A stretch of 62,901 nucleotides of DNA, taken from Candidatus Humimicrobium oleiphilum. Lineage in GTDB: Bacteria > Actinomycetota > Humimicrobiia > Humimicrobiales > Humimicrobiaceae. This document shows, in pieces, positions 11,566 through 36,628 of the stretch. The notes under the pieces were generated by a model. That model did no database searches, was not told the origin of the DNA, and worked only from the letters and a program-made list of their open reading frames with translations. Location: assembly GCA_002304935.1 (NCBI GenBank), contig DBPS01000051.1, positions 25,861-88,761 of the forward strand. The letters are read 5' to 3'. The translations under genes were made by a program, and so were the position numbers. Position 1 is the first letter of the stretch, and every line of letters starts with the position of its first letter.

Positions 11566-13032
11566 TTATGGCTGAATCATAGATTTAAAAAGATCATTAT
11601 AAATCCCTGCAGAATAATCCCATGAATAATCACATATCATTGCATTATATATTATTTTATTCCATATCTGGCTATCTTTAAAAAACAATAATGCTTTTTT
11701 AATACATTTATAAAAGCTTTGCCAGTCATAATCATTAAATAAAAATCCCTGGCCGCCTGTTCCGGCATCTTTTTCTGACCGGACGTCAATAATTGTATCA
11801 GCAAGACCTCCCGTTTTTCTTGCGACTGGAATTGTTCCATATTTCAGGCTTATAAGCTGTCCCAGACCGCAGGGCTCATATTTTGAAGGCATAAGAAAGA
11901 TATCTGCCCCTGCATAGATCTCTCTAGCCAGCCTGTCTGAAAAAGTCAGATTTAAACTTATTTTATCATTATAGATCTTTTGGACATTTTTTAAGAGGTT
12001 CATATATTTATCATCGCCAGTCCCGAGTATTATGACATATATCTGTTCTTTTAATATCTCTTCCAGTGTTTTTACCAGGATATCAAAACCTTTTTGTTCA
12101 GATAATCTTGAAACAACTCCCAGAACAGGCCTGTTGTAATCAGGTTCTTTAAAAGTTTTATTAAGTAATTCTTTTTTGCATTGTTCTTTACCTGAAAAAT
12201 TGCCGGGACTATAGTTTTCTGCAATTTCTCTGTCCTTTTCAGGATCCCATAATTCATAATCTATGCCGTTTATTATTCCGGATAGTTTTGCTTTCCGCAC
12301 ATTTAATATTCCTTCAAGCCCGTATCCGAATTCAGGAGTAAGTATTTCTTTTGCATAGGTCGGGCTTACTGTGGTTATCTGATCCGAGTATACTATTCCA
12401 CCTTTCATGCAATTGATTTTTCCATAAAATTCAAGCCCGTCCATATTAAAATATCTTTTATCGATATCGAGAATATCCATTGTCTCTGGCCCGAAAATAC
12501 CCTGATATGCGATATTGTGAATAGTAAAAACTGTTTTTGTATCTTTAAAATAGCTGTTTTCATTTAAAGTTTTTTTAATTAAAAGAAAGAGAGCGCATAA
12601 TCCTACATGGTAATCATGCAAATGAAGAATGTCAGGCCTGAAGTTTATTGTTTCAAGAAGCTCGAATATCGATTTGGAAAAAAAACCGAACCTTAAATTA
12701 TTATCTCCATAATCGCCATAAGAAGTTCCATAAAGGTTTTCCCTGCCGAAATAAAAAGGGTTTCTTATGAGGTAATAATCTACCCCTTTGTTGCTTATTT
12801 TAAAAATATCAAAAAAATCTTCTTTACTTTCGTTAATTTTTACTTTTATATTTTCGGCTATCTTTATAATATTTTTGAAATTCAAAAAAATATCCTCATA
12901 CCCGGGCATTATTACAATCGGTTCATTAGCTATTTTTTTCAATGCATGGGGGAGTGACCCTGCTACGTCTGCAAGCCCGCCTGTCTTTGCAAATGGAACA
13001 GCCTCAGTGGAGCATATGGCAAGTCTTAACAT
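11566..13032 (-). CDS. glgA: Glycogen synthase (GT5); ORF track start 13071, ATG 13032 preferred
   Basis: PFAKTGGLADV, HLHDYH, FTIHNIAYQG, SRLSEQKG, PSKYEPCGLGQ, TGGLADT. Confidence 0.95.
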   Translation of the reverse strand: MLRLAICSTEAVPFAKTGGLADVAGSLPHALKKIANEPIVIMPGYEDIFLNFKNIIKIAENIKVKINESKEDFFDIFKISNKGVDYYLIRNPFYFGRENLYGTSYGDYGDNNLRFGFFSKSIFELLETINFRPDILHLHDYHVGLCALFLLIKKTLNENSYFKDTKTVFTIHNIAYQGIFGPETMDILDIDKRYFNMDGLEFYGKINCMKGGIVYSDQITTVSPTYAKEILTPEFGYGLEGILNVRKAKLSGIINGIDYELWDPEKDREIAENYSPGNFSGKEQCKKELLNKTFKEPDYNRPVLGVVSRLSEQKGFDILVKTLEEILKEQIYVIILGTGDDKYMNLLKNVQKIYNDKISLNLTFSDRLAREIYAGADIFLMPSKYEPCGLGQLISLKYGTIPVARKTGGLADTIIDVRSEKDAGTGGQGFLFNDYDWQSFYKCIKKALLFFKDSQIWNKIIYNAMICDYSWDYSAGIYNDLFKSMIQP

Positions 13033-13178
13033 TTTAAGCTCATTTATATGTTTATTATTTAAAGGAATCAATCTTTTTTAATTAATCCCATTGCATATTT
13101 AATATTTATATTATATTAATAATTAAAATGCAAAGTTATAAATTTAATAACTGACAGTTTATTTGTATTAGTGATTTT

Positions 13179-15101
13179 ATGGGCGAAACAGACTCTTATA
13201 AAAATTTCAACCAGTTTACAGAATATGATATTTACCTTTTCAAGAATGGTAATAATTTTAAAATCTATGAAAAAATGGGCGCGCACCAGAGAAAGATCAG
13301 CGGTGAAGAGGGAATATATTTTGCTGTATGGGCGCCGAATGCCAGTGATGTGTGCATTGCCGGTGATTTTAATGGATGGGATGGAAAAAATTGCAGACTT
13401 ATAAATAGAAGAGATGAATCAGGGATATGGGAAACTTTTATTCCAGGCCTGGAAGAAGGTTCTTTATACAAATACAAGATAAAACCAAGGTTTAAAACCG
13501 AATATATTGAGAAAGCTGACCCATTTTCATTTTTTTGCGAGACACCTCCAAAGACTGCGTCTGTAGTAAAAAATATTGAGTTTGACTGGAAAGATAAAGA
13601 ATGGATGGGAAAAAGAGCCGGATACAATAAACTTGATGCTCCCTTTTCGATTTACGAGATCCATCTTGGCTCCTGGAAAAGAGATAGTAATAACAATTTT
13701 CTTAATTACAGGCAGATTGCACAGGAATTGGTACAATACATAATAGATAATGGTTATACTCACGTAGAACTTCTTCCAATCATGGAACATCCTTTTTATG
13801 GTTCATGGGGCTACCAGGTTACAGGATTTTTTGCACCTACTTCCAGATATGGAAATCCCCAGGATTTTATGTATTTTGTTGATTATCTTCACCAGAACAA
13901 TATAGGAGTCATTCTTGACTGGGTCCCTTCTCATTTTCCTGATGACCCTCACGGACTTTACCTTTTTGATGGAACTCATCTTTATGAGCATGCTGATAAA
14001 AAACTGGGATATCATCCGGACTGGAAAAGCCGGATCTTTAATTACGGGAGATATGAAGTCAAACAATTTTTAATAAACAATGCATTGTTCTGGCTTGACA
14101 AATATCATATTGATGGTTTGAGGATAGATGCAGTGGCCTCTATGTTATATCTGGATTATTCAAGAAAAGAAGGAGAGTGGATACCCAATAAATACGGTGG
14201 CAGGGAAAATCTGGAGGCAATCGAGTTTCTAAAACAGCTAAATACTGAAGTATATAAAAATTTTCCTGACGTACAAACAATTGCCGAAGAATCTACAGCC
14301 TGGCCGAAGGTCACAAAACCGGTGCATGCAGGAGGACTTGGATTTGGAATGAAGTGGAACATGGGATGGATGCATGATACCTTAAATTATTTCTCCAGAG
14401 ACCCTGTTTACAGAAAACATCATCAGAATGAACTGAATTTTACTTTCTGGTATGCTTTTAATGAAAACTTTATCCTGCCTCTTTCTCATGACGAAGTCGT
14501 GTATGGGAAAAAATCACTGTTAGAAAAAATGCCAGGAGACCTGTGGAGAAAATTTGCAAATCTCCGTCTTCTGTTAAGCTATATGTTTGCCTATCCCGGC
14601 AAGAAGCTTATGTTCATGGGCTTGGAATTTGCACAGCCAGGCGAATGGCAGCATGAATCAGTACTACAGTGGCATCTTGCCAGCAGGGAAGGACACAGGG
14701 AAATCAATAAGATATTAAGGGATCTGAACGATATTTATAAAAAAGAAAAAGCTTTTTATATGAATGATTTTGATGGCGCCAGCTTTAAATGGGTTGATTT
14801 TAAAGATTATGAAAACAGCATTATTTCATTTTTAAGGATATATAAAAATGAAATTACAATACTGGCATGTTTTAATTTTACTCCTGTTCCCAGATACGAA
14901 TACAGTATAGGGGTTCCGTCCGGTGGAGTCTGGAAAGAATTTTTTAATAGTGACTCAGAAATATACGGGGGAAGCGGGCACGGAAATTTCGGGAAGCTGG
15001 CTGCACAGGCTTCTCCCTGCCATGGGTACAACAATTCGATATCCGTGACACTTCCGCCTCTTGGGGCATTATTTTTTAAAAAAGAAGAAATAAACAAATG
15101 A
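13179..15101 (+). CDS. glgB: 1,4-alpha-glucan branching enzyme (GH13)
   Basis: FAVWAPNA, YEIHLGSW, SWGYQ, LDWVPSHFP, GLRIDAVASMLY, IAEEST, LSHDEVV. Confidence 0.97.
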   Translation: MGETDSYKNFNQFTEYDIYLFKNGNNFKIYEKMGAHQRKISGEEGIYFAVWAPNASDVCIAGDFNGWDGKNCRLINRRDESGIWETFIPGLEEGSLYKYKIKPRFKTEYIEKADPFSFFCETPPKTASVVKNIEFDWKDKEWMGKRAGYNKLDAPFSIYEIHLGSWKRDSNNNFLNYRQIAQELVQYIIDNGYTHVELLPIMEHPFYGSWGYQVTGFFAPTSRYGNPQDFMYFVDYLHQNNIGVILDWVPSHFPDDPHGLYLFDGTHLYEHADKKLGYHPDWKSRIFNYGRYEVKQFLINNALFWLDKYHIDGLRIDAVASMLYLDYSRKEGEWIPNKYGGRENLEAIEFLKQLNTEVYKNFPDVQTIAEESTAWPKVTKPVHAGGLGFGMKWNMGWMHDTLNYFSRDPVYRKHHQNELNFTFWYAFNENFILPLSHDEVVYGKKSLLEKMPGDLWRKFANLRLLLSYMFAYPGKKLMFMGLEFAQPGEWQHESVLQWHLASREGHREINKILRDLNDIYKKEKAFYMNDFDGASFKWVDFKDYENSIISFLRIYKNEITILACFNFTPVPRYEYSIGVPSGGVWKEFFNSDSEIYGGSGHGNFGKLAAQASPCHGYNNSISVTLPPLGALFFKKEEINK

Positions 15102-15133
15102 TTTATTTTGATATTCAGGAAATGGTATAAATT

Positions 15134-17821
15134 ATGGCAGATAAAAAAACAGCAAAAAGATTTGTATGCATACATGGTCATTTTTATCAGCCATACAGGA
15201 AAAATCCCTGGATTGAAGAGATAGATATACAAAAAGATGCTTATCCTTATAAAGACTGGAATGAAAGAATAAATGCTGAATGTTACAGAGCTAATGCATT
15301 TGCCCGGGTTCTTGGGAATGATAATAAACTGGCAGATATCTATAACAATTATTCAAAAATAAGTTTTAACTTCGGGCCAACTCTTCTTGAATGGATAAAA
15401 ACAAATGATTTAACTACCTATGAAAGAATAATCGAAGGTGATTTTCAAAGCAGAAATATTTTTTCAGGACATGGCACAGCTATTGCACAGAATTACAATC
15501 ATCTTATAATGCCTCTTGCCAGCAGGCAGGATAAGATTTTACAGATTTACTGGGCAATATATGATTTTGAGAAAAATTTTAGCAGAAAGCCTGAAGGAAT
15601 GTGGCTGGCCGAAACTGCGGTTGATTATGAGACACTGGAGATTCTGGCTGACTTCGGTATAAAATATACCATTCTTTCTCCTTATCAGGCTTCCAGATAC
15701 AGACAATCCCTAAAAAATCCGGATAAAGATTTATCAGGAGAAAACCAGTATTCAGATAAATGGATCCTGGCAGAGGAAGGAAGCATAGATACAAGAAGGC
15801 CGTATACCTGTGTCCTGCCCTCAGGCAGAGAAATATCTGTTTTTTTCTACGACAGGGAACTTTCAACTGCTCTTTCATTTGGAGATCTTCTGAAAAACGG
15901 GGAAGGATTTGCCCAAAGCATTATTAATGCACCATATTCTGATAAAGACAGAAAAGAGATAATCATAATAGCTTCAGATGGCGAAGCATATGGCCATCAT
16001 AAAAAATTTGGTGACATGGCCCTTGCTTACTGCATAAAGACAATACAGGAAGATTGTGATGTGGCTTTTACGGTATTTGGAGAATATCTGGAATTATTCC
16101 CTCCGGATTTTGAAGTTGAAATCATTGAAAATACTGCCTGGAGCTGTAGTCATTTTTTATCCAGATGGGAAGGAGGCTGTAGCTGCGGGATGCCTGAAAA
16201 TCAGCCAGAGGGAAAATGGAGCCAGGAATGGCGGGTTCATCTGAGGCAGGCAATAAATAAAGCAAGAGCAGAAATTGATAAAATATATCAATCAAATATA
16301 AAAGAATATATAAAAGAAGAAGCTAAAGATGACTTACAGATACTTAAAGATTATATAATTGTAGCAGATAAAAGGAATCCAGAAAATATAAGAATATTTT
16401 TAAATAAATATTCAAATAAGAATATGAGAAATATAACAGAAAGTGCCGGTATTTTTAATCTTATTAAGAATGATTACGCTGCTGATGAGGGCTTGCTGCT
16501 TGCGTTGCTTGAGATGCAGAGGCAGGCTATGCTCATGCAGTCCAGTGATGCCTGGTTTTTCGATGATATTTCAAGGATAGAAGTAATACAGATATTTACC
16601 CATGTGTTAATGGCAATTAAACTTGGCAGTTTTTTTGATCTGAAAAAAGCCAGAAAAATTGAAGAAATATTTATAGATATATTAAAGTCTGCAAAATGCA
16701 ATATCCCTGAAGGAACAAGCGGCTCCGATATTTATTTAAATGAAGCTTATAAAAAAGAATATTCTACAGAAAAAATCGTTGCTGATTTCATTACAGATTT
16801 TCTGGCAGCACATAATTTGAAAGACAATCCTGATTTATACAATAATGATGCAATATTTGATTTTTATAACCATGAATTTGTTCTGACACAGACATTTGAT
16901 TTTGAAGACGAAATGCTTTCAGGACAGTCAGGTGGTCTTTACATAATATCAAAGACAACTTTAAAAAAAGAATTTTGTCTATTTTTCTTCCTGACAGGCA
17001 AAAATACAGATTTGCAAAAGGGCAAACATAATGAAATTTTAAAAATTTTAATAAGAAAAAAAACAGCAGGCAATAAAAATAATTTTAAATATTCGCCTGA
17101 AACAATCTTTTTTAACGAAATAATAAAATATAATTTCAGAGGCAATAATACTGAAGAAGTTTTTTATAAATTTAAAAGAAAACCAGGATTTAAATATTAT
17201 GATTTAAAGGATATAAGTGAAAGAATAAAGATAAGATTTCTTGAAAGATATTCATTAATAAAGATTAATGAACTTTACAGAGGATTAAGCGGTTACAAGC
17301 TTTACGCTGATAGTATAGAGGAAAACATGAAGAAATGGGTCGGTGCATACTTTATGGACGATAATGATGGCTCTATTTTTAATGCAATAAAAAAAATAAG
17401 AGCCTTAATAATTTTGAACAATCATAATATAAATGAAAAAGCGATTGAAGAATTAGAATATCTTGCTGATGCTGAAGATTCAGCCATTCTATCGGAAAAC
17501 AAAAATACAGGATATACAGACTTCAGTTTCTTAAAAGCAAGTGCAGAAAATTTATTAAAGACGATGATGAACAAGTATATAAATGATATTACTGACTTGG
17601 AAATGCTGAAAATAATAATCAGGCTCCTGAAGATTTATGGAAGATTCAAACTGAATATTGATTTTCCCGGATTGCAGGATATTGTTTTTAAAATTAAAAC
17701 TATTTTTGATAATCTTCTACATAATAAAAAAAAGTATCTGAATGAAGAAATTCATAATGGCGTAATATTTTTATTAGATTTTTTTAATATAGAACATTTA
17801 TCCGACAATGAGGCTTTTTAA
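15134..17821 (+). CDS. GH57-family / DUF3536 glycoside hydrolase with long C-terminal extension
   Basis: CIHGHFYQP-R-NPW, YNHLIMPLA, GMWLAETAVD (nucleophile Glu), ASDGEAYGHH, MQSSDAWFFDD. Confidence 0.85.
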   Translation: MADKKTAKRFVCIHGHFYQPYRKNPWIEEIDIQKDAYPYKDWNERINAECYRANAFARVLGNDNKLADIYNNYSKISFNFGPTLLEWIKTNDLTTYERIIEGDFQSRNIFSGHGTAIAQNYNHLIMPLASRQDKILQIYWAIYDFEKNFSRKPEGMWLAETAVDYETLEILADFGIKYTILSPYQASRYRQSLKNPDKDLSGENQYSDKWILAEEGSIDTRRPYTCVLPSGREISVFFYDRELSTALSFGDLLKNGEGFAQSIINAPYSDKDRKEIIIIASDGEAYGHHKKFGDMALAYCIKTIQEDCDVAFTVFGEYLELFPPDFEVEIIENTAWSCSHFLSRWEGGCSCGMPENQPEGKWSQEWRVHLRQAINKARAEIDKIYQSNIKEYIKEEAKDDLQILKDYIIVADKRNPENIRIFLNKYSNKNMRNITESAGIFNLIKNDYAADEGLLLALLEMQRQAMLMQSSDAWFFDDISRIEVIQIFTHVLMAIKLGSFFDLKKARKIEEIFIDILKSAKCNIPEGTSGSDIYLNEAYKKEYSTEKIVADFITDFLAAHNLKDNPDLYNNDAIFDFYNHEFVLTQTFDFEDEMLSGQSGGLYIISKTTLKKEFCLFFFLTGKNTDLQKGKHNEILKILIRKKTAGNKNNFKYSPETIFFNEIIKYNFRGNNTEEVFYKFKRKPGFKYYDLKDISERIKIRFLERYSLIKINELYRGLSGYKLYADSIEENMKKWVGAYFMDDNDGSIFNAIKKIRALIILNNHNINEKAIEELEYLADAEDSAILSENKNTGYTDFSFLKASAENLLKTMMNKYINDITDLEMLKIIIRLLKIYGRFKLNIDFPGLQDIVFKIKTIFDNLLHNKKKYLNEEIHNGVIFLLDFFNIEHLSDNEAF

Positions 17822-19343
17822 TAAAAAAAGCGGGATTTTGCTTCATATAACGTCTCTTCCGTCAGAATATGGTATCGGCGACCTGGGACCTGCTGCATAT
17901 AAATTTGCAAAACTGATAAAAGATTGTGGTCAGAGCTTATGGCAGATTCTTCCTACTGCCCCTACCAGCAGATTCAAGCAATATTCTCCTTATGCTTCTA
18001 TTTCTGCCTTTGCCGGCAATACAATGCTAATAAGTCCTTTTTTTTTATACGAAGAAGGATTTTTAAAAAGAAATGAGTTTTTATCATATACGGAAAAATT
18101 TAATAATAAAAGCGGCAGAAGCTATGTTGATTTTGCATACGTAATAAGAAATAAAAAAAATCTTTTAAATAAAGTGTTTTCTAATTTTTATACTGATTAT
18201 CACAGGAATTTTCCTGATTTCCAGGAATTTTGTTTAAGGCATAATGATAACTGGCTTGATTCATTTTCTTTTTTTAATGTCCTTAAAAATAAATATAAGA
18301 ATATTTCCTGGAGTGCATGGCCTGAGGAATTAAAAGAAGGAATAACAGGAAAAGATTTTTACGATAATGAAATAAAGATGGAGATTTTTAGAGAAAAATT
18401 TTTTCAGTTTGTTTTTTTCAGACAATGGTTCAGGTTAAAGAATTATTGCAATAGCATAGGTGTGAGAATTATAGGTGATATACCTATTTATATGGATTAT
18501 GAAAGCAGTGATGTGTGGTCTAATCAGAATATTTTTAAACTTGATAAAAATAAAAGACCGGAATTTGTTTCAGGAGTACCGCCGGATTACTACAGTTCTA
18601 CCGGACAGCTCTGGAACAATCCTGTCTATAACTGGAAAAATTTAAAAAAACAAAACTACAAGTGGTGGTTAAAGAGAATAATGCACAACCTGGAGCTTTT
18701 CGATTTCATTAGGCTGGATCATTTCAGGGGTTTTATCGAATACTGGGAAGTAGGAGCTAATGAGAAAACTGCAAAAAACGGAAATTGGCAAAAAGCAGAA
18801 CCGCAGGAATTTTTCAATGTTTTAAGAAAAGAGATTTATAAAAAATTTAATGATATTCCTCTTATTGCTGAAGACCTTGGTTTTATTACGCCTGATGTGA
18901 TAAAAGTAATTGAAAAGAACAAGTTTCCAGGCATAAGAGTCATTTTATTTGCTTTTGGAAAAGATTTTCCAAATAATATACATTTGCCTGAAAACTATAA
19001 TGATAGATGCGTGGCATATACCGGGACTCATGACAATAACACAGTTTACGGATTTCTTCTCAAAGAAGCAGGCAAGCTTGAAAAGGAAAACATAACAAGA
19101 TATCTCGGATTAAAATCAGGATTAAGCAAAATAAGCATGGAATTTATGAAGAGGATATCAGCATCCAGAGCAGATCTAACAATTTTTCCCGTTCAGGATA
19201 TACTGAATCTTGATTATAGGGCAAGAATGAATAAACCTTCCACCAAAAGAAATAACTGGAAGTGGAAGATGAATTTTTCAGATATGAGCAATAAAAGATT
19301 TGAGGAGCTCGGTCAAATAACTGAAAAAAATAAAAGAAATTAA
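17808..19343 (+). CDS. malQ: 4-alpha-glucanotransferase (amylomaltase, GH77)
   Basis: SGILLHITSLP, WQILP, GDIPIY, GVPPDYYS-TGQLWNNP, RLDHFRGF, IAEDLG, YTGTHDN. Confidence 0.95.
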   Translation: MRLFNKKSGILLHITSLPSEYGIGDLGPAAYKFAKLIKDCGQSLWQILPTAPTSRFKQYSPYASISAFAGNTMLISPFFLYEEGFLKRNEFLSYTEKFNNKSGRSYVDFAYVIRNKKNLLNKVFSNFYTDYHRNFPDFQEFCLRHNDNWLDSFSFFNVLKNKYKNISWSAWPEELKEGITGKDFYDNEIKMEIFREKFFQFVFFRQWFRLKNYCNSIGVRIIGDIPIYMDYESSDVWSNQNIFKLDKNKRPEFVSGVPPDYYSSTGQLWNNPVYNWKNLKKQNYKWWLKRIMHNLELFDFIRLDHFRGFIEYWEVGANEKTAKNGNWQKAEPQEFFNVLRKEIYKKFNDIPLIAEDLGFITPDVIKVIEKNKFPGIRVILFAFGKDFPNNIHLPENYNDRCVAYTGTHDNNTVYGFLLKEAGKLEKENITRYLGLKSGLSKISMEFMKRISASRADLTIFPVQDILNLDYRARMNKPSTKRNNWKWKMNFSDMSNKRFEELGQITEKNKRN

Positions 19344-19578
19344 AAAAAGTTTTATGATTTTAAAAATTTTTATAAAATACATTTATTGGCTCTTAAAAAA
19401 AGTAAAATGTCTTTTCTGTAAAAATGTAACCGGGGAAAAGATTTTTTTTCAAATATTAAAAATAAATATTATTTTTGATTTAAATCTGGTTTTAATGTTT
19501 ACTAAGTAATAATTATTATTTTATAATAAGCCAATAAGTACGAAATTTTAATAATTTTTTTATTTTGGTGAATTTAAA

Positions 19579-20844
19579 ATGCGGATAGAAGTGGTGGCAT
19601 TTGTTTTAAGTGGCGGGAAAGGCGAGAGGCTTTTGCCTCTGACAAAAGACAGGGTTAAACCTGCCATGCCTTTTGGTGGAAGTTACAGGGTAATAGACTT
19701 TGTCTTAAGTAATCTTATTCATTCCAGAATAAGAAAAATATATATTCTTACGCAGTACGAACCACGTTCTCTGGAAAAACATATTTTTGAAGGATGGACT
19801 CCTATTTTCGGTATAGGCCGTTATAGCTTTATAAGAATGCTTCCTCCGAAGCAGGGCTCAGACAGTGGCTGGTATAATGGAACAGCAGATGCAGTTAATC
19901 AGAACAAAAGTTATGCATGGGAAAATAAACCGGATATTATAGACATCTTTAGTGCAGATCATATCTATATTATGGATATTTCGATTATGAACGATTTCCA
20001 CTATGACAAGAACGCCGATCTTACGATTTCCGCACTTCCCGTGAAATGTGAAACTGCTTCAAAAAAGTACGGCGTACTGGTAGTAAATGATGACTGGGAA
20101 CTTATCGGTTTTGAGGAAAAGCCTGAAAATCCTACTCCCATGCCGGGTTCAAATGACTATTGCCTTGCATCAATGGGAAACTATGCTTTTAATCCTCAGG
20201 TTCTCATAGAAGAACTGGTTATTGACCAGCATAAAGAAACACAAAGAGATAAGAGCATAATATTGCAGAATCCTGACAGATATTCTTCACATGATTTCGG
20301 TTTTGATGTTATTCCGGCAATGCTTAAGAGAGGAAGAAAAATATATGTATACAACTTTAATGAAAATTATATCATAAGTACTAATAAGCATGAAAAATCT
20401 TATTGGAGGGATATCGGTGATCTTGATGAGTTTTATCAGGCAAATATGGACTTGCTTAAAGATGAAAAAGATGTCAATCTTCATAATGAAAGATGGGAGA
20501 TATTCACGAGGTCGTCATGCCTGAGATCGCCATCAATAAACGGAAGGTCCATTATTTCAAAATCCATCATTTCCAATGGATGTGAAATTAATAAATCTGA
20601 AATCGACAACTCTATTCTGTCATATCATATTGAAGTTTCAGAAAATACAAAGATCACAGGGTCATTTTTAATGGGTTATAATCATATAGGCAAAAATGTG
20701 AAAATCAAAAATGCAATAATTGATACATTTACTTATGTTCCTGACAATACCAGGGTCGGTTATGACATTGAAGAAGACCTTAAAAGAAAACTTACCATAT
20801 CAAACAATGGTGTTGTAATAGTCCCGAGAAGATTTAAATTCTAA
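19579..20844 (+). CDS. glgC: Glucose-1-phosphate adenylyltransferase (ADP-glucose pyrophosphorylase)
   Basis: GGKGERLLPLT--R-KPA-PFGG-YR-IDF-LSN, GTADAV, SADHIY, FEEKP, ASMGNY, DFGFDVIP, YWRDIG; C-terminal beta-helix. Confidence 0.93.
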   Translation: MRIEVVAFVLSGGKGERLLPLTKDRVKPAMPFGGSYRVIDFVLSNLIHSRIRKIYILTQYEPRSLEKHIFEGWTPIFGIGRYSFIRMLPPKQGSDSGWYNGTADAVNQNKSYAWENKPDIIDIFSADHIYIMDISIMNDFHYDKNADLTISALPVKCETASKKYGVLVVNDDWELIGFEEKPENPTPMPGSNDYCLASMGNYAFNPQVLIEELVIDQHKETQRDKSIILQNPDRYSSHDFGFDVIPAMLKRGRKIYVYNFNENYIISTNKHEKSYWRDIGDLDEFYQANMDLLKDEKDVNLHNERWEIFTRSSCLRSPSINGRSIISKSIISNGCEINKSEIDNSILSYHIEVSENTKITGSFLMGYNHIGKNVKIKNAIIDTFTYVPDNTRVGYDIEEDLKRKLTISNNGVVIVPRRFKF

Positions 20845-30070: not shown

Positions 30071-30913
30071 ATGGAAACTGTTGTAACAGGAAGAAATTGT
30101 GAGGTTAGATTCGGGCAGGAGCTTCCGACTGTTTTTATTGCAGAAAGGATAAATCCTACAGGAAGAAAATCCCTGGCTGAAGAGCTGAAGCTGGGAAAAC
30201 TTGATATAGTAGAAAGAGATGCAATCGAACAGACCAATGCCGGGGCTCATATTATTGATGTAAATGTAGGAGCAGTAGGAGTAGATGAAGTGGACATGCT
30301 TCCAAAAGCAGTAAAAAAGGTAATGGAAGTTACTGACAGACCTATTTGTATTGATTCAGCAAATCATAAAGCTCTCAAAGCAGCATTGAATGTCTGCCCT
30401 TATAAAGTACTGATAAATTCTGTAAATGGTGAAGAAGAGTCTTTGGAGTATATGCTCCCGATAGTAAAAGAAAGCAGTTCTGCAGTTATTTGCCTGACAA
30501 TGGATAACAAAGGTATCCCAAATGATCCTGGTGAAAGGCTTGAGATAGCAAAAAGAATTGTGAAACGTGCGGAATCCCTGGGCATAAAAAGGGAAGATCT
30601 TGTTTTTGATCCGCTTGTTATGGGCGCTGCTACTGATGGCAATGCAGGAAGAATCTGTCTTGACAGTATGAGATTGATTGTGAAGGAATTCGGTGTCTCG
30701 ACTACTGGCGGATTTTCAAATATAAGTTTCGGTATGCCTGACAGAGAGTTTCTGAATGTTAATTTTATTATTATGGGAATTATGGCAGGATTATGCGCTC
30801 CCATAACTGATGTACTTATGAAAAGCCTTGCCCCTGCAGTAAAAGCAGCTGATTTTCTTGCCGGAAGAGATGCTTATGGAATGAATTATATATCCATGTA
30901 TAGAAAAAAATAG
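30071..30913 (+). CDS. Stand-alone pterin-binding methyltransferase (MetH CH3-THF-binding domain / AcsE-like methyl-THF:corrinoid methyltransferase)
   Basis: AERINPTGRK, GAHIIDVN, PICIDS, INSVNGE, FDPLV, GFSNISFGMP-R; strong AGGAGG RBS. Confidence 0.85.
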   Translation: METVVTGRNCEVRFGQELPTVFIAERINPTGRKSLAEELKLGKLDIVERDAIEQTNAGAHIIDVNVGAVGVDEVDMLPKAVKKVMEVTDRPICIDSANHKALKAALNVCPYKVLINSVNGEEESLEYMLPIVKESSSAVICLTMDNKGIPNDPGERLEIAKRIVKRAESLGIKREDLVFDPLVMGAATDGNAGRICLDSMRLIVKEFGVSTTGGFSNISFGMPDREFLNVNFIIMGIMAGLCAPITDVLMKSLAPAVKAADFLAGRDAYGMNYISMYRKK

Positions 30914-32248: not shown

Positions 32249-32286
32249 ATTTATAAGGCACAATATTTTTATTGTGCCTTATAAAT
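32249..32286. repeat. Perfect 17-bp inverted repeat with 4-nt loop (terminator or operator)
   Basis: ATTTATAAGGCACAATA-TTTT-TATTGTGCCTTATAAAT, read directly; 11 nt before ATG 32298. Confidence 0.85.
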
Positions 32287-32297
32287 ATTTGATTTTT

Positions 32298-33479
32298 ATG
32301 AAAGAAATATTTGACGTAATCATTAGCGGCTCAGGTCCTTCCGGAAGCATTCTGGGATATCTTCTTTCCAGCAGCGGATACAGAGTACTGATTATCGATA
32401 AAGAAAAATTCCCAAGATATAAAGTATGTGCCGGGGGAATTCAGATTAAAGCTGCCGGGCTGATTCCTTTTAACATTGATTCCCAGATACATAATGTTAT
32501 TAAAAAAATCCATTTTCAGAGAAAAGCAAAAGATGATTTTTTGGGCGAATATGACCAGCCACTCATGTACACTCTTGACAGGCCGGACTTTGATGATTAT
32601 CTTGTAAAAAAAGCTGCAGGAGCAGGCTGTGTGGTTAAAACTGGTGAGAAAGTACAGGAAGTATCGGCTGGTAATAACAATGTGGTCGTTTTTACAGGAA
32701 AAGACAAATATTATGGAAAAATATTTTCCGGCTCTGATGGAGCTAATGGTTTTTCAATAAAAAAATATAATAATTATCGCAAAATAAGAAAAATAATCGG
32801 ATATGAAATTGAAATACCGGTATCAGGATACTGTAAAAAGCCATATCCTGAAAGTAAAAATATCAGGGATCAGGAAAGGAATTTTGCCTTATTTGATAAA
32901 GATACTGTTGTAATTGATTTTGGAGGAGTGAAATTCGGGTATTTATGGCTTTTCCCAAAAAATAAAAGGATTTCTGCAGGAATGGGAGGTTTTCCGGAAA
33001 AATCAAAAGAAATAAAAAAATATCTCAGCTTTTTTATAAGAAATACAGATTTTTTTGATATTAATGAAAAACAGGAACTGCCTCTTCATGCACATTTTAT
33101 TCCGGTAAGAAAAAAGAATGATTTTATATCTTCGTACAGGATACTGGTTACCGGAGATGCCGCAGGTTTGGGGGATGGCTTCACAGGTGAAGGATTGCAT
33201 AATGCAATCCTAAGTTCACATATTGCATTTTCCAGCATAAAAGAAGCTTTAAAAAATTCTTCTTTCGAATTTCATGACTACAGCGAAATGATCAGTCGCG
33301 AAATAATAAAAAATATTGAATATTCAGTTATCATTTCAAAAATATTTTTTTCATCCCAGTATTTTTACTATAAACTGATTAAAAAGAATGAAAAACTTTT
33401 TAAATCATGTTGTAAAATACTAAGAGGAGAAAAAACTTATCTGGATGTTGTAAATAAATTAAAACTAATTAGAATTTGA
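32298..33479 (+). CDS. Geranylgeranyl reductase family FAD-dependent oxidoreductase; ATG 32298 preferred
   Basis: GSGPSGS, FPRYKVCAGG, RPDFDDYL, GSDGANG, GYLWLFPK, GDAAG--DGFTGEG. Confidence 0.85.
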   Translation: MKEIFDVIISGSGPSGSILGYLLSSSGYRVLIIDKEKFPRYKVCAGGIQIKAAGLIPFNIDSQIHNVIKKIHFQRKAKDDFLGEYDQPLMYTLDRPDFDDYLVKKAAGAGCVVKTGEKVQEVSAGNNNVVVFTGKDKYYGKIFSGSDGANGFSIKKYNNYRKIRKIIGYEIEIPVSGYCKKPYPESKNIRDQERNFALFDKDTVVIDFGGVKFGYLWLFPKNKRISAGMGGFPEKSKEIKKYLSFFIRNTDFFDINEKQELPLHAHFIPVRKKNDFISSYRILVTGDAAGLGDGFTGEGLHNAILSSHIAFSSIKEALKNSSFEFHDYSEMISREIIKNIEYSVIISKIFFSSQYFYYKLIKKNEKLFKSCCKILRGEKTYLDVVNKLKLIRI

Positions 33480-33511
33480 CATAAAGAGCAAGCAAGATAA
33501 AAGGGGAAACA

Positions 33512-34315
33512 ATGGTTATTGATAATAAAAAACCTGTCACGATTGTTCAGATTTCAGATATCCATGTTGGCGAGGTTCATTTTGTTCCCAGCCTGTTAAC
33601 CAGAGCTATAGATGAAATAAATGAGCTTGATCCGGATATAGTGATAATAACAGGAGATCTAACTGCAAATGGTTTCAGGAGAGAATACGATACTGTTAAA
33701 AATTACCTGGCTCCGATTAAATGTAATAATCTGATAGTTCAGCCTGGCAATCATGATTCAAGAAATGTGGGATATATCCATTTTGAGGATATCTATGGTG
33801 AACGTTATATTACACATAATAATGAAAAAGTAAAAATAGTAGCTGCTGATTCAACGGAACCAGATCTTGATAACGGGCAGATAGGAAGAGAATATTACAA
33901 GTGGATAAAGAATGAATTTGCAAATACAGATGATAATGTATTTAAGATTTTTACGATGCACCATCATCTTCTTCCTGTTCCGAGTACCGGAAGGGAAAGG
34001 AATGTGGTAAATGATGCAGGGGATGTACTGGAAGTTCTTGTTGATTCAAAAGTAGATATGGTTTTATGCGGCCATAAACATGTTCCCTACATATGGAGAA
34101 TAGAAGATATACTTATGATAACCACAGGGACAGTTTCCTGTCTCAGGTTAAGGGGTAAGATAGAGCCTAATTATAATATAATGTATATCTATGATGACAG
34201 GATAGATATTTTCAGGAGATTTCCGTTTGACAAGATAGAAAAGATCGAAGGAATAAAAAGATCTACTGTTAAGGAAAGGCTTAATGCTAAATTTATTAAA
34301 GAAGCAAAGTTGTAA
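33512..34315 (+). CDS. Calcineurin-like metallophosphoesterase (CpdA/Icc-like)
   Basis: All five metal motifs: SDIH, TGDL, PGNHD, MHHH, GHKH; AAGGGG RBS. Confidence 0.9.
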   Translation: MVIDNKKPVTIVQISDIHVGEVHFVPSLLTRAIDEINELDPDIVIITGDLTANGFRREYDTVKNYLAPIKCNNLIVQPGNHDSRNVGYIHFEDIYGERYITHNNEKVKIVAADSTEPDLDNGQIGREYYKWIKNEFANTDDNVFKIFTMHHHLLPVPSTGRERNVVNDAGDVLEVLVDSKVDMVLCGHKHVPYIWRIEDILMITTGTVSCLRLRGKIEPNYNIMYIYDDRIDIFRRFPFDKIEKIEGIKRSTVKERLNAKFIKEAKL

Positions 34316-35648
34316 AAAGTTCGAAAGAATGGTTGCTCTTGTTGATGGAGAACATTACCCCCAGGTTACAAATGATGCAATCAGAAAATTAAAAAAAGAA
34401 TTTGACGGAACAATTGCAGGAATTATTTTCCTGGGAGGTACCGAGAAGATATCATCAGGAAAATTTTCTGATTTTTTTGATTATGATGTTTTTGTAATAA
34501 AAGATATTTTAAAAGATTTTGTAGCTGCATTGGAAAAATTTAAGCCTGATATTGTGTTTGATTTAAGCGACCAGCCAGTAGTCAACCATGACATAAGAAT
34601 GAAAATCGCCTCTTTTTGCTTTTATAAAAATGTCAGTTATATGGGAACAGATTTCTTTTTTGAAAACCCTGCAGGCCATATCAAACTGGATATTCCTTCC
34701 ATATCAGTTATAGGCACAGGAAAAAGAATCGGAAAAACTGCCATAAGTGCTTTTATTGCCCAGACCTACAAGAAAAAAGGAATAGATGTAATAGTTGTTG
34801 CCATGGGCAGGGGAGGCCCGCAAAAGCCCCAGCTTCTCAAAGGAAGCGAAATGGAAATAACTCCCCGGTTTTTGCTTTCATTAAACAGGAAAGGACTTCA
34901 TGCAAGCTCTGATTATATTGAAGACGCACTGATGAGTAAAATCACAACAGTAGGGTGCAGAAGGTGCGGAGGTGGTTTCGGGGGTAAAGTTTTTTTATCA
35001 AATGTTGCTGAAGGTGCCAGACTGGCAGCTTCATTAAAGCCGGATCTGATAATCATGGAAGGCAGCGGGGCCTCTCTTCCGGATGTTGATACAGACAGCT
35101 ACATATGTGTTATCGGGGCAAATCAGAAATGGGACGAAATTGTAGGATATCTGGGCATATACAGAATTATGATATCGCAGACTATTGTTCTTACAATGTG
35201 TGAAAAACCTGTCTCAGATTTTAAAAATATTGAAGTGCTTTTAAGCAATATCAGGGATATCAATCCTTCTGCCTCAGTTTTTCTTTCCATATTCAGGCCT
35301 CATCCTCTTGGAGAGCTGAGAGGAAAAAAAGTAGTGGTAGGAATGACTGCCAAAAGCATAATGCAGGAAAAAATTAAAAATTATTTAGAAAAAAAGTATA
35401 AATGCATAATAACGGGTATGACTTTCAGCCTCTCGGACAGGCCCAGACTGTATAATGAAATTAAAAAGTTTGATGATTTTGACGTATTTCTTTCGGAGTT
35501 AAAAGCTGCAGCAGTTGATGTGATAACTGATTATTCTGTAAAACAAAACAAGGAAGTCATATATATGAATAATGTCCCGTCTTTCAGGGGAGGAAATAAA
35601 AAATTCACTGATTATCTTTCAATTTTATTTAATGAAATAATCAGTTAG
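34284..35648 (+). CDS. cpgS: Cyclic 2,3-diphosphoglycerate synthetase
   Basis: ALVDGEHYP, GGTEKI, DLSDQPV, P-loop GTGKRIGKT, VAMGRGGP, HASSDYIEDA, VGCRRCGGG, EGSGAS, FRP-PL, ELKAAAVD; overlaps upstream gene by 32 nt. Confidence 0.88.
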   Translation: MLNLLKKQSCKKFERMVALVDGEHYPQVTNDAIRKLKKEFDGTIAGIIFLGGTEKISSGKFSDFFDYDVFVIKDILKDFVAALEKFKPDIVFDLSDQPVVNHDIRMKIASFCFYKNVSYMGTDFFFENPAGHIKLDIPSISVIGTGKRIGKTAISAFIAQTYKKKGIDVIVVAMGRGGPQKPQLLKGSEMEITPRFLLSLNRKGLHASSDYIEDALMSKITTVGCRRCGGGFGGKVFLSNVAEGARLAASLKPDLIIMEGSGASLPDVDTDSYICVIGANQKWDEIVGYLGIYRIMISQTIVLTMCEKPVSDFKNIEVLLSNIRDINPSASVFLSIFRPHPLGELRGKKVVVGMTAKSIMQEKIKNYLEKKYKCIITGMTFSLSDRPRLYNEIKKFDDFDVFLSELKAAAVDVITDYSVKQNKEVIYMNNVPSFRGGNKKFTDYLSILFNEIIS

Positions 35649-35695
35649 TTTTTTAATATATTTAAAATTATTATCAAAAAAATAAATTAAATTAA

Positions 35696-36628
35696 ATGGA
35701 CAAAGAAGTAAATACAAAAGAGATGATAGTAATTTCTGATAAAAAAAAGGGAGGACTTCCTTTTTCCAAAGGTATACTTGCGAATTCAATAATTGTTACC
35801 GGCCTGGACATGCTGACATCACACAGGATAGCTTTTGATGTCCAGGACTATCTTGTTAAAAATAAATTAATGTCAATTTCACTTGAAGAGCTAAGAGCTC
35901 TTGTTTTCAGATTTATAAAGGATGAAGTAAATATTGAATATGCAGAAAAATATCTTTTGTGGCAGTCTGTAGGAAAGCTTAGAAGACCTATAATAATACT
36001 AATAGGAGGTTCTACCGGAGCTGGCAAATCGACCATTTCAACAATTATGTCAAACAGGCTTAATATATCCAGAGTTGTTTCAACAGATGCAATCAGGGAA
36101 ATCATGAGAACTTCTGTTTCTGACAAACTGATAAAACCGCTGCAGGGTTCTTCATATAATGCATACAAACATCTTGCTCTTCCCCCGACAGGTGTAAATC
36201 CCGTGATACTCGGTTTCAGGGAACAGGTAATGGCGGTTACAGTAGGCATAGAAGCAATAATAAAAAGAAGCGTTGAGGAAAAAATAGATACCATCATTGA
36301 AGGCGCTCATGTAGTTCCGGGATATATAAATATTAAAAACATGGAAAACAAAGCGCTGATAGAACATTTTGTCATAATAGTTGAAGATGAAGAACTGCAC
36401 AGAGAACATTTTGTGAAAAGAACGTTTGAAACCCAGGGCTCAAGACCCATGCAAAGATATCTGAGACATTTAAAAAATATCAGAATGATACAAAATTATA
36501 TCCAGGAACTTGCAAATAAAAATAATGTGAAGATACTTGACAACTATAATCTTGACCATACACTTGCAGAAGCAATGGATTTAATGTTTGAAAGAGTAAA
36601 AAAAGAATTTTCAAGTCACAATTATTAA
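35696..36628 (+). CDS. pgk2: 2-phosphoglycerate kinase (archaeal type, N-terminal ATP-cone)
   Basis: ATP-cone PFSKGILANS; P-loop LIGGSTGAGKST; STDAIREIMR; IIEGAHVVPG; RHLKNIR-IQ-Y. Confidence 0.87.
   Translation: MDKEVNTKEMIVISDKKKGGLPFSKGILANSIIVTGLDMLTSHRIAFDVQDYLVKNKLMSISLEELRALVFRFIKDEVNIEYAEKYLLWQSVGKLRRPIIILIGGSTGAGKSTISTIMSNRLNISRVVSTDAIREIMRTSVSDKLIKPLQGSSYNAYKHLALPPTGVNPVILGFREQVMAVTVGIEAIIKRSVEEKIDTIIEGAHVVPGYINIKNMENKALIEHFVIIVEDEELHREHFVKRTFETQGSRPMQRYLRHLKNIRMIQNYIQELANKNNVKILDNYNLDHTLAEAMDLMFERVKKEFSSHNY

Follow-up and report, generated by a model that had tools for sequence, protein, structure and literature searches.

A metallophosphoesterase gene overlapping cpgS as a candidate hydrolytic partner of the 2PGK/cyclic 2,3-diphosphoglycerate synthetase pathway in bacteria and archaea

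In the 62,901-nucleotide stretch of contig DBPS01000051.1 from Candidatus Humimicrobium oleiphilum analysed here (the window, meaning this stretch at its full length), three open reading frames (ORFs) on the same strand fill positions 33512-36628. They encode a metallophosphoesterase (MPE), a homologue of the synthetase (cDPGS, gene cpgS) of cyclic 2,3-diphosphoglycerate (cDPG) and a 2PGK-like P-loop kinase. The host of the window is a bacterium, as xseA, murE, a PBP2-type transpeptidase gene and glgA/B/C all lie within it, and the archaeal framing implied by the initial annotation has to be corrected accordingly. It belongs to the Actinomycetota: the nearest locus in a scan of genomes, one per species, belongs to an Actinomycetota metagenome-assembled genome (MAG) whose MPE is 96% identical, and the closest homologues by name come from Actinomycetota, Humimicrobiaceae, Hakubella and Aquicultor. 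Neither an Rfam nor a tRNA scan of the window gave a match. The following features were identified at the locus, all on the forward strand:

33448..33475, + strand: weak sigma-70-like promoter match (TTGTAA-16-TAGAAT, 9/12), within the 3′ end of the upstream gene
33500..33506, + strand: Shine-Dalgarno-like AAAGGGG, 5 nt 5′ of the MPE start codon (direct sequence reading)
33512..34315, + strand: MPE gene, complete, encoding a cytoplasmic protein of 267 aa and 30.9 kDa with a binuclear-metal hydrolase core
34271..34279, + strand: Shine-Dalgarno-like AAGGAAAGG, 4 nt 5′ of the cpgS ATG at 34284 and inside the MPE coding sequence (direct sequence reading)
34284..34315, + strand: overlap of the MPE 3′ end and the cpgS 5′ end, 32 nt, +1 frame shift (from coordinates; conserved in related loci)
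34284..35648, + strand: cpgS homologue (cyclic 2,3-diphosphoglycerate synthetase), 454 aa, Pfam PF27272 CpgS_N
35696..36628, + strand: 2PGK-like P-loop kinase, 310 aa, matching NCBIfam NF003259 over its full length (E 1.5e-88)

The MPE matches Pfam Metallophos (PF00149) with 68.6 bits (cut-off 21.5; E 1.3e-18) over profile positions 2-191 of 191. Its motifs SDIH, GDL, GNHD, HHH and GHKH start at residues 15, 48, 79, 150 and 187, and the metal ligands D16/H18, D49, N80/H81/D82, H150-152 and H188/H190 are all present and invariant in an alignment of 45 homologues. Neither a hydrophobic segment (maximum 19-residue Kyte-Doolittle mean of 1.06) nor a signal peptide was found. The profile match, the invariant ligands and the hydropathy thus bear out the initial description of a complete calcineurin-like phosphoesterase with five motifs and no signal peptide. 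In addition, the protein carries three family-specific motifs, GNHDSRN, DSxEPDLDNGxIGR and TGRERN, and its arginines R84, R126, R161, R163 and R214 are invariant. It lies far below every cut-off of the NCBIfam CpdA, SpdA, YfcE and LpxG models, reaching 47.9 bits with the CpdA model (NF008359; cut-off 225) and 32.2 bits with the LpxG model (NF033458; cut-off 350), the latter over residues 9-85 only, and no subfamily-specific model for it was found in NCBIfam or Pfam. The MPE belongs to the metallophosphoesterase superfamily and lies outside every characterised family therein. This superfamily includes enzymes cleaving P-O-P bonds, and the analogy originally drawn with LpxH, ApaH and CpdA holds at superfamily level and no closer, as the scores fall short of the CpdA and LpxG cut-offs and identity to structures in the PDB does not exceed 19%.

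The AlphaFold model of the MPE (pLDDT 84, pTM 0.86) is of low confidence at residues 1-4 and at two invariant family loops, 117-120 (EPDLDNG) and 163-167 (RERNV). It shows the beta-sandwich fold of the superfamily, and Foldseek aligned it, with a probability of 1.00 and TM scores of ~0.64-0.71, to Rv0805, purple acid phosphatases and GpdQ, the last being also the best PDB match by sequence (E 4e-7). Reading a substrate from the structure was attempted and abandoned; the nearest PDB entries are generic MPEs, and together with the low-confidence family loops they offered no clue to specificity.

The cpgS product matches the cDPGS of Methanothermus fervidus (PDB 8ork/8oru) with an E of 1e-111 over residues 14-433, and the two are 45% identical in a 12-sequence alignment. 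In the M. fervidus enzyme, contacts to 2,3-diphosphoglycerate (2,3-DPG), ADP and Mg are made by E45, K145, R146, K149, T150, D208, E305, P335, T353, E404 and K406 (PMC10690619). Their equivalents in the window, E54, K147, R148, K151, T152, D210, E307, P339, T355, E405 and K407, all stand in invariant columns, and by every residue test available the neighbour of the MPE reads as a genuine cDPGS. The 310-aa kinase scored 297.1 bits with NF003259, under the curated cut-off of 343; it is therefore named 2PGK-like here, and its substrate is taken from its context.

The overlap of 32 nt between the MPE gene and the cpgS start, already noticed in the initial annotation, was confirmed. The N-terminus of the cpgS product, M-L/I-N-L-L-K, is kept among homologues. 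With a cpgS start at Met16 (34329) there would be no overlap; this alternative was considered and rejected, since the extension before Met16 is conserved and the AAGGAAAGG site precedes the ATG at 34284, with no such site at Met16. The conserved extension and the better ribosome-binding site indicate that the overlap is real, and it implies that the two genes would be translationally coupled. Moreover, an overlap of 20-59 nt, mostly of 29 or 32, was found in 32/32 loci of the close clade. Of the 15 Actinomycetota-type loci that are more distantly related, 14 have junctions of -4 (overlap) to +106 nt (gap), and in the fifteenth (L041) no cpgS start codon was placed by the script.

An MPE part and a cpgS part occur together in four database proteins (P0380, P0433, P0438 and P0489), which are truncated and whose cpgS parts are of low identity. 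We did not retain them as Rosetta-stone evidence, a natural fusion and a sequencing error being indistinguishable in these cases. A single indel in the out-of-frame overlap would suffice to join the two genes, and the apparent fusions could be artefacts. Transcription of the three genes may start internally, from the promoter match at 33448..33475. Promoter matches in the region (n=32) were not clearly more numerous than the shuffle expectation of 25.4 ± 4.8, and the terminator scan gave a similar result; the match is thus only a lead.

The conservation of this arrangement was followed by scanning for cpgS in one genome per species. At least 518 genomes with a cpgS relative were found, and 80 loci (L001-L080) were kept and searched with the window proteins. 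The MPE gene lies immediately before cpgS in 45/45 Actinomycetota-type loci with room upstream, a set made up of 44 loci labelled Actinomycetota (among them Aquicultor, Coriobacteriia, Thermoleophilia, Rubrobacteraceae, Subteraquimicrobiales and Hydromicrobium) and one labelled "uncultured bacterium" (L043). A 2PGK-like gene follows cpgS in all of them except L073. Across this set, identity to the window proteins falls to 46% for the MPE and to 39-44% for the cpgS product. The ugpC-like and geranylgeranyl-reductase genes upstream are kept only in the closest clade, and Candidatus Hakubella thermalkaliphila has a GHMP kinase gene upstream and a transaldolase gene downstream. As the flanking genes differ between clades, the triad, not the wider region, is the conserved unit. 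In the Methanobacteriales-type loci no MPE gene was found within 10 kb of cpgS (0/24). A nearby 2PGK gene is also missing there, which makes the gene order of this group uninformative either way.

The cpgS relatives, found in those at least 518 species-level genomes, include many from Actinomycetota, Bacillota and Thermoplasmatota as well as Methanolliviera and mesophilic gut Methanobrevibacter. This spread is far wider than stated in the 2023 structure paper, where cDPG was described as exclusive to hyperthermophilic methanogens (PMC10690619). In two Bacillota MAGs (L033, 1-7700; L037, 9000-16800) a cpgS homologue has neither 2PGK nor MPE beside it; a GntR/UTRA regulator lies on one side and, on the other, an ABC importer made up of a solute-binding protein, a fused permease and an ATPase, after which a circularly permuted iPGM-like metalloenzyme is encoded. 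Perhaps these are uptake and catabolic loci in which the cDPGS is run in reverse on imported cDPG or 2,3-DPG.

A second architecture was observed with a double MPE (MPE2) of ~500 aa. The N-terminal domain shares 34% identity with the window MPE, with GNHDxR, D.GR.G and AGRERN as common motifs, and its C-terminal domain is conserved but catalytically degenerate, SNTF, CGG and PAGRD replacing DxH, GD and GNHD. Examples are:

L056, 12265-14188: MPE2
L063, 3657-5613: MPE2
L082, 5956-7891: MPE2

One Thermoplasmata and one "Aminicenantes" locus are arranged as cpgS, 2PGK, a gene for a 142-aa CBS-pair protein, and MPE2. When all double-MPE loci with enough sequence were counted, this collinear order was found in 26 of them, namely the Thermoplasmata and "Aminicenantes" loci, a Bradymonadales locus and 23 unlabelled metagenome contigs. 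In two Bipolaricaulota loci cpgS-2PGK is divergent from CBS-MPE2; one metagenome contig has a convergent arrangement, one locus has CBS-MPE2 only, and in L134 the 2PGK gene is divergent from CBS-MPE2 with no cpgS in the locus sequence. The 142-aa CBS-pair protein precedes MPE2 in 45/45 loci with sequence upstream of MPE2, and the two may form a fused pseudo-dimer with a sensor subunit. By source name, MPE2 is found in Thermoplasmata, Natronoplasma, Saliniplasma, MSBL1, Hadarchaeia, Aminicenantes, Acidobacteriota, Brocadiia, Planctomycetota, Bradymonadales, Balneolaceae, Latescibacteria and Bipolaricaulota.

Like the window MPE, MPE2 (P0241 of Thermoplasmata, P0303 of Bradymonadales, P0314 of Rhodohalobacter sp. 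8-1) shows the family motifs and the linkage to cpgS and 2PGK. Unlike the window MPE, it has a fused second domain, is preceded by the CBS-pair protein and is encoded after 2PGK instead of before cpgS, and one of its lineages is without cpgS nearby. In a neighbour-joining tree the Actinomycetota MPE clade and the MPE2 clade are separate; the linkage to cpgS therefore arose, or was kept, at least twice. The question raised initially, whether this phosphoesterase subfamily is consistently found beside cpgS and pgk2, is thus answered positively for bacteria and for the second gene order in other phyla.

The family extends well beyond the linked members. An exhaustive phmmer search of 1.84 billion representatives (50%-identity clusters) returned 175 at E<=1e-30 and 718 at E<=1e-10. 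Single-domain members, 37-48% identical, come from Altiarchaeales, Wukongarchaeota, Caldarchaeum, Diapherotrites, Micrarchaeia, WOR-3, Thermoleophilum album and Gaiellaceae. Within the Methanobacteriales, homologues were found in Methanobrevibacter sp. DSM 116169 (WP_409200862.1, 45% identity) and a Methanobacterium sp. (43%). Six unlinked single-domain members were looked up, and none adjoins cpgS or 2PGK (0/6); the neighbourhoods in WOR-3, Altiarchaeales and Gaiellaceae contain nothing telling. In a Wukongarchaeota locus (L092, 6199-10820) the order is PhoU-MPE-MPE-PstB-like-PhoU, and in Thermoleophilum album (GCA_900108055.1; L094, 6964-15821) the gene of a CpsB/CapC-like protein overlaps that of the MPE, in convergent orientation with phoU-pstBACS and a response regulator gene. 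Such phoU/pst neighbours fit a phosphate-releasing role.

The MPE gene, its intact active site, its coupling to cpgS and the linkage across phyla are established by this analysis, and the linkage of MPE, cpgS and 2PGK is a real, conserved and apparently undescribed functional link. In the literature searched, no paper ties 2PGK or cpgS to a metallophosphoesterase or reports cDPG genes in Actinomycetota; likewise none assigns a gene to cDPG hydrolysis, in agreement with the initial annotation. The latter had proposed that the MPE hydrolyses cDPG or 2,3-DPG. Through the conserved linkage, the functional tie to the 2PGK/cDPGS pathway is well supported, while the ring-opening reaction itself is not established. 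Judged from gene context, the most likely role of the MPE would be the hydrolytic turnover of cDPG and/or 2,3-DPG. That it opens the cDPG ring, with or without a second step, is plausible, and we place it somewhat short of probable. The MPE counts as a functional subfamily new to a well-known superfamily, and its predicted role in the pathway is new as well.

According to the mechanism proposed here, the MPE would be a soluble binuclear-metal phosphohydrolase acting as the dedicated hydrolytic partner of the 2PGK/cDPGS pathway. It would open the pyrophosphate ring of cDPG to give 2,3-DPG and possibly then remove a phosphate from 2,3-DPG, so that the carbon and phosphate stored in cDPG would go back to central metabolism. 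Its gene would share a transcript with cpgS and 2PGK, and its translation would be coupled to that of cpgS, so that the cell would produce the enzymes of synthesis and of breakdown at the same time. Control over the direction of flux would then have to act at a post-translational level, through metabolites, ions or phosphate, and in other phyla the CBS-domain protein beside MPE2 may act as sensor or control. The substrate of the MPE, the direction of flux and its regulation are what we infer.

Several lines of evidence speak for such a role. The superfamily is one of hydrolases, the compounds of the pathway are phosphate esters and anhydrides, and cDPGS needs no helper, the recombinant enzyme alone turning 2,3-DPG fully into cDPG (PMC12136491); for these reasons the MPE is most simply seen as the degradative arm. 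In Methanothermobacter thermautotrophicus, cDPG is regarded as a store of carbon and phosphate, and a membrane-bound cDPG hydrolase activity that K+ and phosphate inhibit was reported (van Alebeek et al. 1994; Sastry et al. 1992, as cited in PMC1224877, the review from which its properties are taken here). A degradative role of the MPE matches this physiology and the phosphate-gene neighbourhoods of the unlinked members. Moreover, homologues 43-45% identical occur in the Methanobacteriales, the order in which cDPG is documented.

Other observations weigh against it. Nothing in the MPE sequence identifies a substrate, and the nearest PDB structures (Rv0805, purple acid phosphatases and GpdQ, 13-19% identical) are phosphodiesterases or monoesterases. 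If hydrolase and synthetase are produced at the same time, ATP may be wasted in a cycle unless there is regulation. The activity of M. thermautotrophicus is membrane-bound and inhibited by K+ and phosphate, whereas the window MPE has no membrane segment and is bacterial; peripheral membrane association is possible for it. In 11 distinct loci of one Balneolaceae-like lineage, including that of the isolate Rhodohalobacter sp. 8-1 (GCA_037646475.1), the order 2PGK-CBS-MPE2 is found with no cpgS in the locus sequence, which ties the enzyme to 2PGK and speaks for 2,3-DPG, more than cDPG, as a possible substrate. The wider family is also found where nothing visibly concerns cDPG, in DPANN, WOR-3 and pst/phoU neighbourhoods, and some of its carriers have tiny genomes; in Diapherotrites, Micrarchaeia, Caldarchaeum, Altiarchaeales and WOR-3 no cpgS or 2PGK was adjacent where inspected, and the Methanobrevibacter homologue adjoins NAC and ribose-5-phosphate isomerase genes, not cDPG genes. 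Finally, a residue signature separating cpgS-linked from unlinked members was sought and no clean one was found, F24, R84, E198 and R214 being somewhat more conserved in the linked ones.

These points leave room for other explanations. The MPE could be a 2,3-DPG phosphatase that takes one phosphate off the 2PGK product and controls the 2,3-DPG pool, leaving the cDPG ring closed; 2,3-DPG could also come from cDPG by another route, such as the reverse reaction of cDPGS. In fact, the cDPGS of M. fervidus was reported to be reversible (PMC1224877), so that a separate ring-opening enzyme is not strictly required. The Balneolaceae-like loci and L134, which lack cpgS in their locus sequence, would be explained in this manner, MPE2 adjoins CBS and 2PGK, not cpgS, in the double-MPE clusters, and the structural neighbours include phosphomonoesterases (purple acid phosphatases). 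Nonetheless, in the 45/45 Actinomycetota-type loci the MPE is coupled to cpgS and not to 2PGK, cpgS may lie elsewhere in the Balneolaceae genomes, and a kinase and a phosphatase acting on one compound would make a pure futile cycle unless 2,3-DPG itself is stored. We consider this phosphatase role unlikely. Equally unlikely in our judgement is a general intracellular phosphate-mobilising phosphoesterase that acts on some other ester or anhydride and lies beside the cDPG genes through common phosphate or osmotic regulation, not through a common metabolite. The wide family (175 and 718 representatives at the two thresholds), with members in DPANN, Caldarchaeum, Altiarchaeales and WOR-3, would suit such an enzyme, as would the phoU/pst genes beside unlinked members and the lack of an own specificity signature in the linked ones. 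Yet a coding overlap with one particular gene across 45 loci, together with a second architecture, would rarely arise from co-regulation alone, and Methanobrevibacter does encode cpgS.

Two further roles appear less probable still. The MPE might serve biosynthesis or repair, destroying a released intermediate or side product (e.g. the 2-pyrophosphate) or converting cDPG to another solute. Translational coupling would keep its output in step with the synthetase, and in many compatible-solute pathways a synthase and a phosphatase are encoded in one operon. The mechanism of cDPGS, moreover, proceeds via a 2-pyrophosphate intermediate (PMC10690619). However, recombinant cDPGS converts 2,3-DPG to cDPG completely on its own, with no helper needed (PMC12136491), CBS-MPE2 of the Bipolaricaulota is transcribed divergently from cpgS-2PGK, and the Methanobacteriales keep cpgS alone. 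This role seems improbable, and we know of no such alternative solute or side product. As for a cyclic-nucleotide phosphodiesterase of the CpdA/Icc type, with a signalling role unrelated to cDPG, it is called to mind by the source annotations "3′,5′-cyclic AMP phosphodiesterase CpdA" or "Icc protein", by Rv0805 as the best structural match and by a weak match to the NCBIfam CpdA model. The annotation names are, however, pipeline transfers, the CpdA score of 47.9 falls well short of the cut-off of 225, Rv0805 is 18-19% identical, and the conserved linkage to cpgS and 2PGK would be left unexplained; we regard this possibility as very improbable.

Returning to hydrolytic turnover of cDPG and/or 2,3-DPG as the preferred role, a broader proposal can be formulated. 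The MPE family would be the missing cDPG hydrolase, completing a regulated store-release cycle (2PGK, cDPGS, hydrolase and, in many lineages, a CBS sensor) that would serve as a widespread reserve of phosphate, carbon and osmolyte and would have been spread by horizontal transfer. We put this forward as a speculative extension, doubtful at present. It would span at least eight phylum-level groups by source annotation, bacterial and archaeal: Actinomycetota, Thermoplasmatota, Acidobacteriota including "Aminicenantes", Planctomycetota including Brocadiia, Bipolaricaulota, Bradymonadales, Balneolaceae and Latescibacteria.

Activities hydrolysing cDPG were described about thirty years ago, and without a gene the cDPG cycle has been closed to genetics and engineering. 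The candidate presented here rests on conserved gene order in two independent architectures, and it is directly testable, since a one-step enzymatic synthesis of cDPG is now available (PMC12136491). Clusters of cpgS and 2PGK are common in uncultured Actinomycetota and in several other bacterial and archaeal phyla. If these bacteria do make cDPG, both the thermoprotectant function assumed for it and what is known of its occurrence will have to be reconsidered, and if the MPE is the missing cDPG hydrolase, the cDPG cycle is no speciality of hyperthermophilic methanogens. For the production of cDPG as an extremolyte, a hydrolase of the host would be an obvious knock-out target or control point.

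Other genes of the window deserve mention. A glycogen set consisting of glgA (minus strand), glgB, an 895-aa ORF, a 511-aa ORF and glgC occupies 11566-20844, ~13 kb upstream of the MPE gene; the organism therefore encodes a second carbon store beside the putative cDPG system. The 895-aa ORF gave no NCBIfam match at E<=1e-10. At 30071-30913 lies a gene for a pterin-binding protein resembling methyltetrahydrofolate:corrinoid/iron-sulfur protein methyltransferase, of Wood-Ljungdahl type (NF005719, 277.7 bits, exceeding the cut-off). Directly 5′ of the MPE gene, at 32274-33479, a flavoprotein of the geranylgeranyl-reductase family is encoded (TIGR02032, 176.6 bits, exceeding the cut-off), and this adjacency was found in 17/32 loci of the close clade and is absent from the more distant loci. 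A hairpin with a 17-bp stem followed by a T-rich tail was detected at 32249-32286, 3′ of the ugpC-like ABC ATPase gene. The hairpin overlaps the GTG (32274) listed as start of the geranylgeranyl-reductase ORF, which probably begins at the Met at 32298 instead, and it would split ugpC from the downstream geranylgeranyl-reductase, MPE, cpgS and 2PGK genes.

Among known systems, Rv0805 (PDB 3ib7, 2hy1), CpdA/Icc and GpdQ (PDB 3d03, 2zo9) share with the window MPE the calcineurin-like fold, the five metal motifs and a similar size. They differ from it in that identity is 15-19%, E values are no better than 4e-7 and the curated cut-offs are widely missed, and in contrast to them the MPE family has its own invariant loops, GNHDSRN, EPDLDNGxIGR and TGRERN, modelled with low confidence. 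A looser likeness, by analogy only, is offered by the ppk-ppx operon of E. coli and the glycogen glg operons, which concern other enzyme families and other compounds; there, as is generally known, synthesis and breakdown genes stand in one operon, the builder of a reserve and its mobilising hydrolase being encoded together and controlled after translation. A functional parallel is the hydrolase of M. thermautotrophicus, whose reaction, cDPG to 2,3-DPG, is the one proposed for the MPE. In that organism cDPG is viewed as storing carbon and phosphate, and the archaeal order to which it belongs contains homologues of the window MPE.

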